Shown: one piece after another, positions 16,336 through 59,532 of the stretch | Layout: each line of letters begins with the position of its first letter | Numbering within the stretch: the stretch's first letter is position 1 | Virus record (IMG/VR): IMGVR_UViG_3300029479_000004 | Location: 1-59,532 of that record | Length of the DNA stretch: 59,532 bases | Strand: one strand, 5' to 3' | From: a virus | Position numbers and translations under genes: made by a program | Notes under the pieces: generated by a model | Databases searched by the model: none | Told to the model about the DNA's origin: nothing | What the model saw: the letters and a program-made list of their open reading frames with translations, nothing else

Positions 16336-16577
16336 TGGAGAAATGGCTTATGAAATTTACAAAATTCATTAAGCCAGAACTTGAACAAATCAAAGAAAAT
16401 GCCAATTTCACGGAAGAAGAGGAGAGAATTTTCTCTCTTCTCTGCCGTGGTTTTTCACAAAAGCAAATATCCACAAAAGAAAATCTATCACTAAGAACGA
16501 TAGAGTACAGAGTGAGAGATATAAAAGATAAAATAGAAAGAACGGGGGTATTTGATTGGATGAAAAAGAACTGTTGA
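16335..16577 (+). CDS. LuxR/sigma-70 region-4-like HTH regulator
   Basis: LTEEEERIFSLLCRGFSQKQISTKENLSLRTIEYRVRDIKDKI. Confidence 0.5.
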   Translation: MEKWLMKFTKFIKPELEQIKENANFTEEEERIFSLLCRGFSQKQISTKENLSLRTIEYRVRDIKDKIERTGVFDWMKKNC

Positions 16578-17752
16578 AATATGCCGTTGATAGTGGTATT
16601 CTCGACATAGCACTTGTGCAGAAACAAGTTACTATGCAAAAGAGAGAAAAATTACTCAACAAAAACCCTTATAAAATCTATCAAGGAAAGGATGAGAACT
16701 GGTACTCATATCTGCCGGATGAAGTAAAAGGCAGACGTAAAATCAAGGCAAAGCGCAGAGAAGCGGTCGAGCAGAAAATCATTGATTATTGGAAAGAGAG
16801 AGAAGATGACCCCACGATAGAGGAAATCTTCAACCGTTGGATTTCACAAAAGCTGGAACTTGAAGAAATCAGCAGGGCAACCTATGACAGATACCTAATG
16901 GATTTTCAAAGATACTTTGACGGTATCAAGGATAAGAAAATCAAAGGTGTAGACGAATGCGACCTTGAAACGTTTATACGAAATAGCATCCATGATTTCG
17001 ACATGACTTCCAAGGCGTTCTCAAACTTCCGAACGCTGATTTACGGAATCTTTAAGTATGCCAAACGGAAGAAGTATGTCAAGTTTTCCATTACATACAC
17101 GCTGAAAGACATGGATATATCGCCAAAAGCGTTTAAGCACGTAGTCCGAAAGGCAAAAGACCAAGTATATATGCCGGATGAAAAGGAACGCATGGAGATG
17201 TACCTTAGAAATCACTTAGATATCGTAAACCTTGGATTGCTATTTATGTTTAAGACAGGAGTCCGTGTCGGGGAATTGTCGGCATTAAAGCGGAAAGATG
17301 TTGAAAACTACACGGTTGCGATCAATTCTACAGAAACACGCTATCGTGATGATGATGGTTTTCACTATGAGGTCAAAGATTTTCCGAAATCAGAAGCCGG
17401 ATTGCGATTTGCCATATTGCCGGATAAGTACAAATGGATTCTTGATGAAGTACGAAAGAGAAATCCCTTCGGGCAATATCTATTTGAGAGAGACGGAGAA
17501 CGGTTGAAATCCTACAACTTTCGTGAACGTTTGCGGTATATCTGCGAACATGAATTGAGAATGAAAGTGAAATCTCCGCACAAAATCCGAAAGACATACG
17601 GAAGTATCTTGCTTGACGGAAAAGTGAAAGAGTCCACAATCCTTGATACCATGGGGCATACAGACATTAGTTGCACAAAAGATCATTATTATTTTGATCG
17701 TACCGGAATTGAGGAAAAGAGACAGGAACTTGACTTAATCGAAGCATTATGA
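16556..17752 (+). CDS. int: tyrosine recombinase (phage integrase family)
   Basis: Arg box GVRVGELSAL, HKIRKTYGS (HxxR) and MGHTDISCTKDHYY (catalytic Tyr region). TTG start after GGGGG. Confidence 0.85.
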   Translation: MDEKELLKYAVDSGILDIALVQKQVTMQKREKLLNKNPYKIYQGKDENWYSYLPDEVKGRRKIKAKRREAVEQKIIDYWKEREDDPTIEEIFNRWISQKLELEEISRATYDRYLMDFQRYFDGIKDKKIKGVDECDLETFIRNSIHDFDMTSKAFSNFRTLIYGIFKYAKRKKYVKFSITYTLKDMDISPKAFKHVVRKAKDQVYMPDEKERMEMYLRNHLDIVNLGLLFMFKTGVRVGELSALKRKDVENYTVAINSTETRYRDDDGFHYEVKDFPKSEAGLRFAILPDKYKWILDEVRKRNPFGQYLFERDGERLKSYNFRERLRYICEHELRMKVKSPHKIRKTYGSILLDGKVKESTILDTMGHTDISCTKDHYYFDRTGIEEKRQELDLIEAL

Positions 17753-17759
17753 GTCCCTA

Positions 17760-17920
17760 GTACTCAAAAGTACTCAAAGAAAAATTGAAAGAATGGCTAT
17801 TTTAAGCCATTTCAAGACAATTACTCTAGGGTTCGATTCCCGTACGGACTGTTTTAAAAGTCGCATAAACACTGTGTTTGCGGCGTCTTAAGAAAATTGG
17901 TACTCAAAATGGTACTCAAA
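17760..17920. other. putative attP: tRNA T-arm-like core flanked by four GTACTCAAA arm-type repeats
   Basis: GTACTCAAA at 17760, 17770, 17900 and 17912. GGGTTCGATTCCC at 17829..17841. Immediately downstream of int. Confidence 0.5.
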
Positions 17921-29094: not shown

Positions 29095-29165
29095 TGGGCT
29101 ATCGCCAAGCGGTAAGGCACAGGATTTTGATTCCTGCATTCCGGGTTCGAATCCCGGTAGCCTAA
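29095..29165 (+). tRNA. tRNA-Gln (anticodon UUG)
   Basis: Full cloverleaf: U1-A72, anticodon loop TTTTGAT, T-arm CCGGG-TTCGAAT-CCCGG. Resembles bacterial tRNA-Gln as recalled from memory. Confidence 0.9.
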
Positions 29166-29392: not shown

Positions 29393-29464
29393 GGGGATTT
29401 AATTCAGTGGTAGAAGACACGGCTTATATCCGGGTTGTCGCGGGTTCGATTCCTGCAATCCCAA
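29393..29464 (+). tRNA. tRNA-Ile-like (anticodon UAU)
   Basis: Cloverleaf with loop CTTATAT and T-arm GCGGG-TTCGATT-CCTGC. Mismatches at 1-72, 10-25 and 28-42 lower the score. Confidence 0.55.
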
Positions 29465-29547
29465 CGATAGGTCTTGCGTATTCTTTAACAAGAGTATGCG
29501 AAGTGGATTATAAAAGAAACGCACAACAAACAGGCTGCGAGTAGGAA

Positions 29548-53591: not shown

Positions 53592-54392
53592 ATGGCTATA
53601 GCAGGAAGAGTAGCAATCGTGCCAAAAGGCGATTGGAGCGCAGATGCTACATATAAGAGATTGGATGCAGTGACTTATAACAATACGCTTTATTTCGCAA
53701 AAAAGGAAGTGCCTGCAGGAACGGCAACAAGCAATACGGAATATTGGTCGAAGTCGATTGTGGGTGGTGCCGGTGCAATCGCAACGAAAGAGGATGCCGG
53801 GATTGTGAAACCGGCAGACGGACTTTCGATTGCAGAAGATGGAACCCTTAAGGTAAGCATTGATGGCACGACTCTTACAATGGATCAGGTCAACAATGTA
53901 ATCAAGTTGGCAGATACCTTAAAAGAAAAAATCGGAAGCGCACTGCAACCGGAAAGTATCGTAAACAACCAGATTACGACAGTGGAAGGGTTTGCGTTGG
54001 ACGCGCGGCAGGCTAATCCGGATCTGGATGGTACGCTTGCAAAGCAGATAAGTGATTTAAACGGCAGTTTAAAAATTAAAATTGTTCAATGGACACCATA
54101 TTGTCCTCGAACAGATTTTGCAGATAAGGTTAAGCTTAGCGAAGCGATGGCACTACGATACGGATCTTTAGTAATTTGCGCTATACGTATTGATTTATCT
54201 GAAAATACTCCTGGCGGATATGTTTCTATTGTAAATTTACCAACAAAATTGTTTACTGGTATCAACCAAACAAACATGGACGGAAAAGAAGGTAAATGGT
54301 ATTTAGATAAAAACACAGCTAGTGTCTTTTTGCGAAGCGTATTTGAAGCCGGCACGTATTGGCTTAACTTCATGTATCTAGAAGCAGAATAA
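53592..54392 (+). CDS. tail fibre / receptor-binding protein (current C-terminal variant A)
   Basis: 266 aa with the GDWSADATYKRLDAVTYNNTLYFAKKEV N-terminal motif. Contains inversion site 1 at codons L-N-G-S-L. Confidence 0.6.
   Translation: MAIAGRVAIVPKGDWSADATYKRLDAVTYNNTLYFAKKEVPAGTATSNTEYWSKSIVGGAGAIATKEDAGIVKPADGLSIAEDGTLKVSIDGTTLTMDQVNNVIKLADTLKEKIGSALQPESIVNNQITTVEGFALDARQANPDLDGTLAKQISDLNGSLKIKIVQWTPYCPRTDFADKVKLSEAMALRYGSLVICAIRIDLSENTPGGYVSIVNLPTKLFTGINQTNMDGKEGKWYLDKNTASVFLRSVFEAGTYWLNFMYLEAE
54056..54073. repeat. inversion site 1 (dyad TTTAAAC-GGCA-GTTTAAA)
   Basis: 17 bp (54057..54073) are the exact reverse complement of 54687..54703. Confidence 0.75.
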
Positions 54393-54394
54393 AA

Positions 54395-54724
54395 TTAAAT
54401 ATCATACAAAATAAAATTGCCTTCCCAAACTTGTACAAAACAAAGAGTGGTACTTCGTGGACTTGCAAGTAACCCAATACCATAATTTAAAGTATCTAAA
54501 CCATTCCACGAAAATATAATAAGCGAGTAATCACCTACATTTTTGAAAGTCGTTACGTGTTTAGATATTGAACTATAGAAATTATCTTCTATTGTTTCTA
54601 CGTGGTATATTCCACATCCACCAGATACTTGCGATGCCGAAGACCAATTATTGATTATTTTTCTGAACTTAAAATTATTTAAGTCATTTAAACTGCCGTT
54701 TAAGAAAATATATCGAACAAACAT
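54395..54724 (-). CDS. promoterless alternative tail-fibre C-terminal cassette (variant B), inverted orientation
   Basis: Only 7 codons precede the shared L-N-G-S-L repeat. No SD. Tail-to-tail with the fibre gene (2-bp gap). AT-richer than its neighbours by eye. Confidence 0.6.
   Translation of the reverse strand: MFVRYIFLNGSLNDLNNFKFRKIINNWSSASQVSGGCGIYHVETIEDNFYSSISKHVTTFKNVGDYSLIIFSWNGLDTLNYGIGLLASPRSTTLCFVQVWEGNFILYDI
54687..54704. repeat. inversion site 2 (TTTAAAC-TGCC-GTTTAAG)
   Basis: Inverted copy of site 1. Core TGCC is the reverse complement of GGCA. Confidence 0.75.
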
Positions 54725-54774
54725 TCGAAAGTAACTTATAAACCATTTTTTATCATAGAAAGGAATTAAAAAAC

Positions 54775-55155
54775 ATGGATAAAATTATTTTAGCCAACAA
54801 AACAGAGTTCGAAATTGCCGATGGGGCAAGCCTTGGAAACATCCAGATCAAAGCCGAGAACTTCGAAGCCGTCAAGACCATCACGGATGCATTTTCTGCG
54901 GACAACCTGCAGGAAGTTACATTTACACATAATGGCGAAACATCCGGCAAGTACACAGATCTGAAATCCGATGGGTTTACATATATGCCGAACGTGGGAG
55001 AGGACGGAGCAGAAGACGGTACATATACCGTTACTATCAGGTTGCGAACAAAAACGGAAATGGAAAAGGCAATTGATGAGCTTAAAGCAGGACACGAAGC
55101 AAACGCAGAAGCAATCGAAGAATTGGCAAGCATTACCGCAGAAAGTGAGGTGTAG
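54775..55155 (+). CDS. XkdW-position hypothetical protein
   Basis: 126 aa. Precedes an XkdX-like mini-ORF. Confidence 0.4.
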   Translation: MDKIILANKTEFEIADGASLGNIQIKAENFEAVKTITDAFSADNLQEVTFTHNGETSGKYTDLKSDGFTYMPNVGEDGAEDGTYTVTIRLRTKTEMEKAIDELKAGHEANAEAIEELASITAESEV

Positions 55156-55158
55156 GAT

Positions 55159-55284
55159 ATGGTTAAATTCTACGTGAGACGTATTCTTGTAGATAAGAAA
55201 ATGACGATTGATGAAGTGCCGATGCGTTGGCGCGCAAAAGTGCAAGAAGAGATTGAGAAACAGCTTTCCGCTTCTCTGCAATGA
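55159..55284 (+). CDS. XkdX-like small protein (41 aa)
   Basis: MVKFYVRRILVDKKMTIDEVPMRWRAKVQEEIEKQL. Read manually. Confidence 0.5.
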   Translation: MVKFYVRRILVDKKMTIDEVPMRWRAKVQEEIEKQLSASLQ

Positions 55285-55421
55285 CATTTCCTGTCGAAAC
55301 TTGCGACCGAAAAATGTTGAAATCATGCATATTGCAGTGATACTATGGACTTGTCCGAAAGGACACTTCAAGTTCTGGCATGGGGGCAAGGCTTGGCATT
55401 GGCTTTGTCCCCAAGTTGTTA

Positions 55422-58885: not shown

Positions 58886-59506
58886 ATGGAGAACAAAATA
58901 ACACTAATCGGTGATGTTGTATCAGCACCAAGAGAAAGCCATAAATCAAATGGTAAGAATTTTTATAAATTTTTTATCGGAGTTGAAAGAAGAAGTGGTG
59001 TTGCAGATATACTTCCGGTACTGTTCGACAAAGAAATCAGCGATACAGGAATCAGCGGAACGGTATGTGTCAATGGGAAGATAATTACCAGGCGCGTAAA
59101 AACAGGGTCTGGAAAAGCCATTCTTACATATGTTATGGCTGATACAATCACAAAACCAGAGGATGATAGCCCTTTGAATGAAGTAAGCCTTGATGGAATT
59201 ATCGAGGAAAAGCAACTTAGAGAAACGCCACTTGGTCGTAAAATCTGTGATTTGAAACTCAAAAACGTAAGAGAAAACGGAAAAGAGGATTTGATCACCT
59301 GCATTGCGTGGAGTGATAATGCGGAATACACAAATACTCTTTCGATAGGAGATAGGGTTAGCGTTTACGGCAGACTACAGAGCCGGAGATACAAGAAAAC
59401 GTGTAAAGATGGTCACGTTATGGAAAAAGTTACATATGAGTTGTCAATAAAAGGAATCGTGGGGGGGTGTAATAATGCGAATGATTTTAAAATCGTTACA
59501 TATTGA
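58886..59506 (+). CDS. ssb: OB-fold single-stranded DNA-binding protein
   Basis: GAAAGGAG RBS. MENKITLIGDVVSAPR...GDRVSVYGRLQSRRY pattern of SSB/PriB-like OB folds. Heads the recombination module. Confidence 0.55.
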   Translation: MENKITLIGDVVSAPRESHKSNGKNFYKFFIGVERRSGVADILPVLFDKEISDTGISGTVCVNGKIITRRVKTGSGKAILTYVMADTITKPEDDSPLNEVSLDGIIEEKQLRETPLGRKICDLKLKNVRENGKEDLITCIAWSDNAEYTNTLSIGDRVSVYGRLQSRRYKKTCKDGHVMEKVTYELSIKGIVGGCNNANDFKIVTY

Positions 59507-59532
59507 AAATTTCAAAGGTGTAAAGGATAAGA
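59434..59532. repeat. 99-bp terminal redundancy, identical to 1..99
   Basis: Exact copy of the window start. Confidence 0.9.

Follow-up and report, generated by a model that had tools for sequence, protein, structure and literature searches.

The 59,532-nucleotide stretch of viral DNA analysed here (IMG/VR virus record IMGVR_UViG_3300029479_000004, positions 1 to 59,532; hereafter the window) carries a tail-fibre gene whose C-terminal part lies in a 647-bp segment bounded by a perfect 17-bp inverted repeat, and this segment is found in both orientations, between fixed flanks, among related phages. We propose that the locus is an orphan two-cassette fibre-tip switch in a temperate, siphovirus-like phage of Roseburia faecis, similar in design to the Rin shufflon of Bifidobacterium prophages and flipped in trans by a tyrosine recombinase, a reading that we consider probable, if only by a modest measure. 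The fibre gene consists of a constant part of 155 codons, a 17-bp site read as LNGSL and a tip of about 100 codons, with a second, unrelated tip placed tail-to-tail behind it; recombination from site to site flips the segment and fuses the other tip in frame, and the genes for a 126-aa and a 41-aa protein remain in the late operon in either state. Under our proposal, the catalyst would be an Xer-like tyrosine recombinase without an arm-binding domain, of the type encoded beside four identical sites in two other prophage families, and would be supplied in trans by a co-resident element, since the window phage has no such gene. The same sites would also allow whole cassette pairs to be exchanged among three prophage families, giving a shared pool of at least 21 tip cassettes.

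Anatomy of the proposed fibre switch and its crossover sites

An initial annotation, made from the window alone, had described a perfect 17-nucleotide (nt) inverted repeat shared by the fibre gene and a convergent open reading frame (ORF), read in both as Leu-Asn-Gly-Ser-Leu and resembling a recombinase site with dyad arms. Coordinates, exact reverse complementarity and translations bear out all of these points (Table 1). The two copies of the 17-mer, TTAAACGGCAGTTTAAA, are separated by 613 nt, the second being the exact reverse complement of the first, and are read in frame as ..ISDLNGSLKIK.. in the fibre and as MFVRYIFLNGSLNDL.. in the silent ORF. With up to three mismatches allowed, the 17-mer occurs at only two places in the 59.5-kb window, a match count that was equalled in 0 of 100 shuffles (shuffle mean, 0.31). 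Each copy forms an 18-bp near-palindrome, TTTAAAC-GGCA-GTTTAAA, with a central GC dinucleotide and a single asymmetric pair (G7/A10), which is why the opposite strand of a site also matches, with 2-3 mismatches.

Table 1. Coordinates of the switch locus, its downstream genes and the integration functions in the window
Feature	Position	Strand	Remarks
Fibre ORF	53592..54392	+	266 aa, full ORF
Constant N-terminal part of tail-fibre gene	53592..54056	+	aa 1-155; ends ..DARQANPDLDGTLAKQISD just before crossover site
Crossover site 1	54057..54073	+	TTAAACGGCAGTTTAAA; LNGSL codons within fibre gene
Expressed C-terminal cassette 'fibC'	54074..54392	+	106 aa plus stop; now joined to constant part
Convergent silent ORF	54395..54724	-	109 aa
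Silent C-terminal cassette 'altC'	54395..54686	-	97 aa after LNGSL; convergent with fibC
Crossover site 2	54687..54703	-	exact inverted copy of site 1
Silent-cassette leader MFVRYIF	54704..54726	-	short; without ribosome-binding site
Invertible segment	54057..54703		647 bp; both sites plus two convergent cassettes
Two conserved genes always 3' of switch	54775..55284	+	126-aa and 41-aa proteins
126-aa protein gene	54775-55155	+	function unknown; follows second site in relatives
41-aa CD1375-family protein gene	55159-55284	+	NCBIfam NF040910 match
Terminator-like hairpin	55381-55413		3' of 41-aa gene; terminator scan
Int, tyrosine integrase	16556..17752	+	398 aa; PF00589 and PHROG integrase matches
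attP	17760..17920	+	tRNA 3'-end-like core between two arm-repeat pairs

As the initial annotation had noted, only 7 codons precede the repeat in the silent ORF and no Shine-Dalgarno-like sequence occurs in the 15 nt before its ATG; a promoter scan likewise gave no match upstream of it. The stop codons of fibC and altC lie 2 nt apart. In-silico inversion of positions 54057-54703 gives an in-frame ORF of 257 aa, in agreement with the earlier expectation that the last ~105 aa of the fibre would be replaced by an unrelated domain of ~97 aa, and 244 of the 257 residues of the flipped product are identical to P0173, a predicted protein listed on 16 contigs. A PHROG tail-fibre match covers aa 5-59 of the fibre, i.e., within its constant part. 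G+C content is ~0.43-0.49 in the constant gene part and 0.28-0.34 across both cassettes, and the segment is ~99% conserved between phages, compared to ~84% in the adjoining constant fibre part; the segment is thus AT-richer and better conserved than its flanks, as expected of a horizontally shared module. The 126-aa gene is not part of the segment and is the same in either orientation.

A short dyad, GAA-N6-TTCGA(T/C)A(A/T)T, is found ~11 nt upstream of the 17-mer at the silent sites of loci L001, L026 and L112-L128, and the silent-cassette leader of the window carries it with one mismatch to the pattern (GAA-N6-TTCGATA, 54709-54726, minus strand). This motif is not enriched across the window (4 matches vs 2.5 expected) and is absent from the fibre-side site and from a second type of leader (atgtgtaaatttayggg..), and it recurs by position beside silent sites across loci, including those of recombinase-bearing relatives. 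It could represent an accessory site or an asymmetric arm site for the invertase.

The 17-mer was also compared among phages of the window's type, where 16 of its 17 positions are invariant in 23 distinct expressed-site (site-A) contexts and, equally, in 20 distinct silent-site contexts. By comparison, 9/30 positions are invariant in the fibre coding sequence directly upstream of the site, 7/30 in the silent-site leaders and 0/30 on the cassette side. Freezing of the synonymous positions of the LNGSL codons indicates selection on DNA and points to conservation of the 17-mer at the DNA level, not merely as a peptide motif. A 3-mismatch match, TTATACGGCATTTGAAA, located ~10 kb downstream in six relatives and missing from the window, was set aside as one chance match that has been conserved.

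Orientations and cassettes among related prophages

IMG/VR was scanned for the altC cassette, and in each of the 29 loci recovered, the constant part, both cassettes, the 126-aa gene and all sites were located. The orientation of the window is also seen in L003, L005, L008 and L029, and the flipped orientation in L004, L007, L009 and L136-L138 as well as, with a more divergent fibC (66-71% aa identity), in L015, L021 and L023. In L004, L007 and L009, the fibC cassette (98-99% aa identity) is the silent, inverted one. Window positions 54057-54703 are inverted in L004 at 99.2% identity (blastn) between colinear flanks of 85-90% identity, and the segment is inverted at 95.8% in L007 and 95.2% in L009, with colinear flanks ranging from 77 to 91% across the three loci; in each, the strand switches exactly at 54057-54073 and 54687-54703. 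The claim of the initial annotation that this is an invertible segment swapping the C-terminal domain of the fibre in frame is thus supported, with both orientations present between fixed flanks and breakpoints at the 17-mers; the anatomy of the locus, the in-frame swap and the natural occurrence of both states follow directly from comparing the window with its relatives. Three cassette pairs (altC/fibC, altC/family 2 and altC/family 5) each occur in both orientations on the invertase-less backbone, and inversion has therefore apparently happened repeatedly in window-type phages. Among loci that extend past the second site, which include three prophage families, the 126-aa gene follows that site in all but L027. 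One short public contig (L002:1-40) opens with a translated remnant of the Nextera adaptor (MYKRQ) followed directly by the fibre-altC junction, and is an assembly fragment that starts near the invertible boundary.

A search of related phages for the 17-mer and for additional cassettes, as the initial annotation had suggested, found the sites to be shared and identified at least 21 unrelated cassette families of 81-165 aa, all starting at LNGSL. The constant fibre part has 2932 homologues, many of which are 94-100% identical there only and have differing C-termini, and, among public protein predictions, a fibre N-terminus 95-100% identical to that of the window is joined to many cassette families. 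With regard to altC, 22 homologues of the silent ORF align from LNGSL onward only and are preceded by heterogeneous leaders; a fibre-like N-terminus precedes LNGSL in the predicted proteins P0009 and P0017, and the fibre N-terminus carries altC in 19 of the 26 IMG/VR loci of the window's type (e.g., L004, L006, L007, L009, L014-L016 and L018-L025) and also in L002, P0009 and P0173. These data uphold the initial view of the minus-strand ORF as a silent cassette. That it is instead an ordinary independent gene, with the 17-mer reflecting a conserved LNGSL motif of two paralogues, is very improbable; the ORF does have an ATG and is called 'hypothetical protein' in public annotations, but it shows no ribosome-binding site or promoter-like signal, its 7-codon leader is not conserved and homology begins exactly at LNGSL, the same domain forms the C-terminus of full-length fibres elsewhere, and the nucleotides of the repeat are invariant even at synonymous positions.

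The three prophage families in which these cassettes occur are the invertase-less phages of the window's type, a siphovirus type that carries a recombinase beside the cassettes, and a very common PBSX-like contractile-tail element that does likewise. Housekeeping proteins encoded beside each of the three types (NusA; RNase Y and RF3; GltX and PcrA) match Roseburia faecis proteins exactly, which places all three in R. faecis chromosomes; RecA beside the first recombinase-bearing family matches Roseburia sp. TF10-5. One cassette pair of the PBSX-like element (L140:8982-9595) shares 97.6-99.3% identity with its counterpart in ten invertase-less phages and ~99% with that in the other recombinase-bearing family, with identity ending at the 17-mers and adjoining fibre and 126-aa gene sequences only 72-89% identical. 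Moreover, both silent-site leader types of the invertase-less phages are nearly identical to leaders at site B in the two families that bear a recombinase, differing at no more than a few of 30 nt. Near-identical pairs bounded by the 17-mers, together with shared leaders, suggest that cassette pairs have been exchanged between elements at these sites, and such exchange would mean that a recombinase acts on sites of phages that do not encode it.

Structure prediction gave limited information on the tips. The AlphaFold2 (AF2) model of the full fibre had a mean predicted local distance difference test (pLDDT) score of 52.4, with 54-76 per 10-residue block in the fibC domain, and the altC model had a mean of 50. 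The best fold matches of fibC were to the receptor-binding protein of lactococcal phage TP901-1 (E ~1e-2, Foldseek); Foldseek matches to this protein and to adenovirus fibre heads had E >= 7.5e-3 and are a hint only. Profile searches against Protein Data Bank (PDB) sequences gave nothing usable.

Candidate recombinases and alternative explanations

The first and last 99 nt of the window overlap (positions 1-120 and 59434-59532), and relatives continue across the join, which identifies it as a complete, circular genome of ~59.4 kb. Early genes include a repressor, Cro-like genes, an antirepressor, a single-stranded DNA-binding protein (SSB), a replisome organiser, DnaB and a methylase, and late genes include a terminase, portal, capsid, tape measure, a 745-aa fibre with an endosialidase-chaperone domain, a 242-aa protein and the 266-aa fibre; two tRNA genes, tRNA-Gln(TTG) and tRNA-Ile(TAT), are located at 29095-29165 and 29393-29465, respectively. 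Close relatives of the region were missing from an annotated phage collection, which gave only a 145-nt, 70% match to Roseburia phage Jekyll. Pfam scans of ~90 ORFs on both strands detected no serine recombinase (PF00239-type), no second tyrosine recombinase and no recombinase of another family, and tblastn of the window with approximate Hin, Gin and TnpR queries gave nothing (E >= 0.29). A serine invertase was thus rejected, in line with the initial annotation, which had seen no such motif in any ORF and had named the tyrosine recombinase at 16556..17752 as the only recombinase; the scans of the complete genome agree with the latter point as well. An XerD-like recombinase without an arm-binding domain is absent not only from beside the cassettes but from the whole 59.4-kb genome.

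The recombinase that is present, Int, is a genuine tRNA-targeting integrase. Next to its gene lies an attP whose core, GGGTTCGATTCCCGTACGGACTG (~17829-17851), resembles a tRNA 3' end and is surrounded by two pairs of the arm-type repeat GTACTCAAA (17760, 17770, 17900 and 17912). Similarity to the window stops at 17851-17853 both in long ENA contigs and in 13 IMG/VR loci extending beyond this junction, and 12 further contigs end exactly there; in the long contigs, host rimP-nusA-infB lies beyond the Int-side prophage edge. No tRNA is found at the integrase-side junction, in keeping with an intact tRNA being restored at the opposite end of the prophage. One public record labels Int 'telomere resolvase', apparently a misannotation. 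In one lysogen, a 174-aa ORF, by its sequence a putative ToxN/AbiQ-like toxin, is located ~0.8 kb past the Int-side junction (L102:5095-5619), where rimP-nusA otherwise follows; the integration site may sometimes hold another element.

Recombinases of a different kind recur beside the fibre sites in relatives. In the two other prophage families, more than 20 loci have as many as four sites, ordered +,-,+,-, with all four present in most (e.g., L001, L116, L128 and L140), compared to two in the window at <=3 mismatches. The first family, consisting of L001 and 16 more loci found with the L001 recombinase (L001rec), is arranged as constant fibre part, site(+), cassette pair, site(-), 126-aa gene, small gene, recombinase of 326-346 aa, site(+), cassette pair, site(-). 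The second, PBSX-like family, with baseplate J, sheath initiator, holin and amidase genes, has the identical 17-mer and layout, and its recombinase (P0313), the exact sequence of which is present on 783 contigs, is 55% identical to that of the first family. Both L001rec and P0313 combine a SAM-like core-binding domain with a PF00589 catalytic domain (Pfam PF13495 + PF00589), lack an arm-binding domain and match the NCBIfam XerA/XerC/XerD models along almost their entire length, with P0313 reaching 222 bits (cut-off for NF040815, 220). Close relatives of L001rec are missing from the annotated phage collection, where its best matches are to unannotated faecal phage contigs (42% in a partial alignment, 36% near full length). 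Depending on the locus, altC is found at position A, B, C or D. Sites and enzymes also vary together: L027 has a recombinase that is 52% identical and variant sites, and L112 has a G7-to-C change common to all four sites. Based on adjacency and this co-variation, the Xer-like tyrosine recombinase is likely to be the invertase of these sites.

Several structural peculiarities were observed in these elements. In the PBSX-like element of one R. faecis contig (L142:7464-11034), the whole module, i.e., the 126-aa gene, a 37-aa gene, the recombinase and the cassette pair, is present as a tandem duplicate, as expected from unequal exchange between directly oriented sites. The third site of this element (L140:8981-8997 and its equivalents in L141-L143) begins with the stop codon of the recombinase (..GTAGC-ATAAACGGCAG..), and exchange there would thus change how the recombinase gene ends or what immediately follows it. 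In the first recombinase-bearing family, the shufflon is located at the very end of the prophage, adjoining host rny-recX-recA (L128:6700-9229; L118:8578-9447), and a second tyrosine recombinase of 290 aa lies just beyond it in some members and is missing in others.

With regard to the catalyst in the window phage, the initial annotation had considered either that Int does double duty or that a host enzyme is used. Catalysis by Int of fibre inversion besides integration and excision is quite unlikely. Int is the only recombinase in the complete genome, all invertase-less relatives that were checked by contig name have it, and an always-available Int would explain the strong site conservation in the window lineage. 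However, the weak resemblance between the attP core and site 1 noted in the initial annotation is at chance level: of 3000 random 71-nt windows, a fraction of 0.056 matched or bettered the attP score in local alignment with site 1 and its flanks, as did 0.68 with site 2 and its flanks and 0.23 with the bare 17-mer. The four GTACTCAAA repeats are found at attP only, with none near the fibre switch, and the tRNA T-arm sequence that forms the Int core is unrelated to TTTAAAC/GTTTAAA; a dual role argued from attP similarity was rejected on these grounds. In addition, Int is only 22% identical to the recombinases adjoining identical 17-mers, which are used in two prophage families with other integrases. 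The second option, taken broadly as an enzyme from outside the phage, is the better one and can be made more specific: Xer-like tyrosine enzymes adjoin identical sites in two other prophage families of R. faecis. A chromosomal, non-prophage R. faecis recombinase that flips the segment in trans, in the manner of RecV or Mpi/Tsr, would always be available and would account for the lack of an invertase in the phage, and global invertases acting on distant sites are established and have been cited for an orphan bifidophage locus (PMC6109161); we nevertheless judge it unlikely, given that no such gene was identified in this analysis, that only prophage-borne recombinases recur beside these sites and that, in the DNA examined, the sites were seen only at fibre loci.

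It is similarly unlikely that the switch no longer flips, with the two orientations arising from imported cassette pairs or rare RecA events and the silent cassette being a passenger. Cassette pairs clearly move between prophage families, and the segment is better conserved than its flanks (99.2% vs 85-90% in L004), which fits import; yet an import bounded exactly by the 17-mers would still need a recombinase acting on window-phage sites, flanks that are 72-89% identical are too diverged for easy homologous exchange between families, and purifying selection on synonymous positions of the sites argues for continuing use. A 17-bp repeat is also below the usual length for efficient RecA recombination.

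We therefore return to the proposed trans-acting, Xer-like recombinase, against which several observations nonetheless count. No isogenic pair with opposite orientation was present among 31 loci, and no contigs from the same sample showed both orientations, the P0173 and window-fibre contigs that were looked up coming from different samples; orientations were compared between contigs, and switching within one population is presumed. Among compared loci, flanks are 84-95% and segments 95-99% identical, and some orientation differences could thus come from import of cassette pairs instead of flipping in place. The link between recombinase and site is drawn from adjacency and co-variation, and a conserved core of 17-18 bp is short for a complete tyrosine-recombinase site. 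Both altC and L001rec were unmatched in scans of representative bacterial genomes, and the proposal presupposes co-residence of the window phage and a recombinase-bearing element in one cell. Finally, designation of the tips as receptor-binding heads relies on their position, their diversity and weak fold matches of low-confidence models, and is to be read as provisional. We infer, then, which enzyme acts, that it does so in trans and that flipping continues within window-phage populations. The wider proposal, in which three R. faecis prophage families share a pool of at least 21 cassettes bounded by one 17-bp site, Xer-like invertases both flip and move cassette pairs, and the window phage relies on the recombinase of resident elements, is advanced more tentatively, as a plausible possibility that we hold to be somewhat doubtful.

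Relation to known inversion systems and implications

A system of this kind is already known in its tyrosine-recombinase version. The Rin shufflon of Bifidobacterium prophages Bb423phi1 and Bl157phi1, reported as the first phage-encoded tyrosine invertase, comprises a constant N-terminal receptor-binding-protein gene, a short repeated crossover site and several unrelated C-terminal cassettes of ~95-100 aa, with a predicted XerD-like tyrosine recombinase without an arm-binding domain beside the cassettes (PMC6109161); Rin-type loci were later noted in Eggerthella lenta prophages (PMC8778435). The locus described here resembles Rin in that a constant N-terminus is joined in frame at a short site to alternative, unrelated tips, orientations differ between related genomes, and the cassette fold, by the weak matches obtained here, resembles the TP901-1 receptor-binding head; the full design is held by the four-site relatives L001, L116, L128 and L140. 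By contrast, the window phage has two cassettes and no recombinase gene, its site is the 17-bp near-palindrome TTAAACGGCAGTTTAAA rather than the asymmetric 11-bp rix (TTCCCTAACCC), convergent pairs lie on both sides of the recombinase in relatives rather than in a one-sided tandem array, and the host is a Firmicute (Roseburia) rather than an Actinobacterium. This comparison is one of design and of the common tyrosine-recombinase fold. A parallel to an orphan switch is provided by the tRNA-Met-integrated bifidophages 689b-1 and Bb423phi2, two related prophages between which a fibre locus of ~500 bp is inverted at a short repeat with no flanking recombinase and an invertase acting in trans was proposed (PMC6109161). 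Whereas that case involves two genomes, an 8-bp repeat and no named candidate enzyme, dozens of genomes in both states, site conservation at the DNA level and candidate trans recombinases beside identical sites in the same host species are available here.

Inversion switches of tail-fibre tips in Mu and P1 are textbook examples. In Gin/Cin-type systems, a serine invertase is encoded next to the segment, the sites are 26 bp long with a crossover of 2 bp, and Fis binds an enhancer. The analogy with Mu G and P1 C drawn in the initial annotation stands for the logic of the switch, as in Mu G/Gin, P1 C/Cin, e14 Pin and p15B Min (the last with several cassettes) inversion likewise swaps a host-range C-terminus onto a constant N-terminus; it fails for the enzyme family, since the window has no serine recombinase and the associated enzymes are tyrosine recombinases. 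The segments of these systems also carry alternative fibre-assembly (U/U'-type) genes, whereas the window segment consists of two C-terminal cassettes only and the putative accessory gene (126 aa) is constant and outside it. The R64/IncI1 shufflon with Rci shares with the present system a tyrosine recombinase, short sites and C-terminal exchange of a surface adhesin (PilV). Conserved sequence at R64 shufflon sites lies mainly on one side, and the silent-site leaders here likewise share a one-sided motif. The R64 system differs in belonging to a conjugative-plasmid pilus, with Rci in cis, rather than a phage fibre, and its sites and enzyme appear unrelated in sequence to those described here, in comparisons that did not include Rci itself. 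That an invertible segment need not have its own enzyme is also seen with global invertases. In Bacteroides fragilis, one recombinase of the Mpi and Tsr family flips several unlinked regions (cited in PMC6109161). In Clostridioides difficile, RecV likewise acts on distant sites. Those systems are chromosomal and mostly invert promoters, whereas the proposed donor here is another prophage and the target a coding cassette. Systematic surveys place tail-fibre genes among the families enriched for programmed inversions (PMC9881135). In a full-text literature search, neither a comparable system in phages of Roseburia or other Lachnospiraceae nor the sharing of cassettes by different prophage families through one common site was described, absence from the texts searched being no proof.

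What is new here is a fibre-tip switch in abundant R. faecis prophages, namely a well-populated, enzyme-less switch for which candidate trans invertases can be identified by identical sites, together with site-bounded cassette pairs at 98-99% identity across three otherwise dissimilar prophage families. Roseburia faecis is a major butyrate producer of the human gut, and to our knowledge phage-host specificity in this species is almost unstudied. For assembly and annotation, the silent cassette of such loci is a concern, as it is routinely called a hypothetical gene, and the 17-bp site, combined with a small enzyme of the Xer-like type, could be used as a compact tool to exchange receptor-binding domains. 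If the proposed mechanism is correct, host-range switching of the window phage would depend on other prophages in its host, and the receptor repertoire of a phage would be set in part by its co-resident prophages, which would matter for the prediction of host range from metagenomes.

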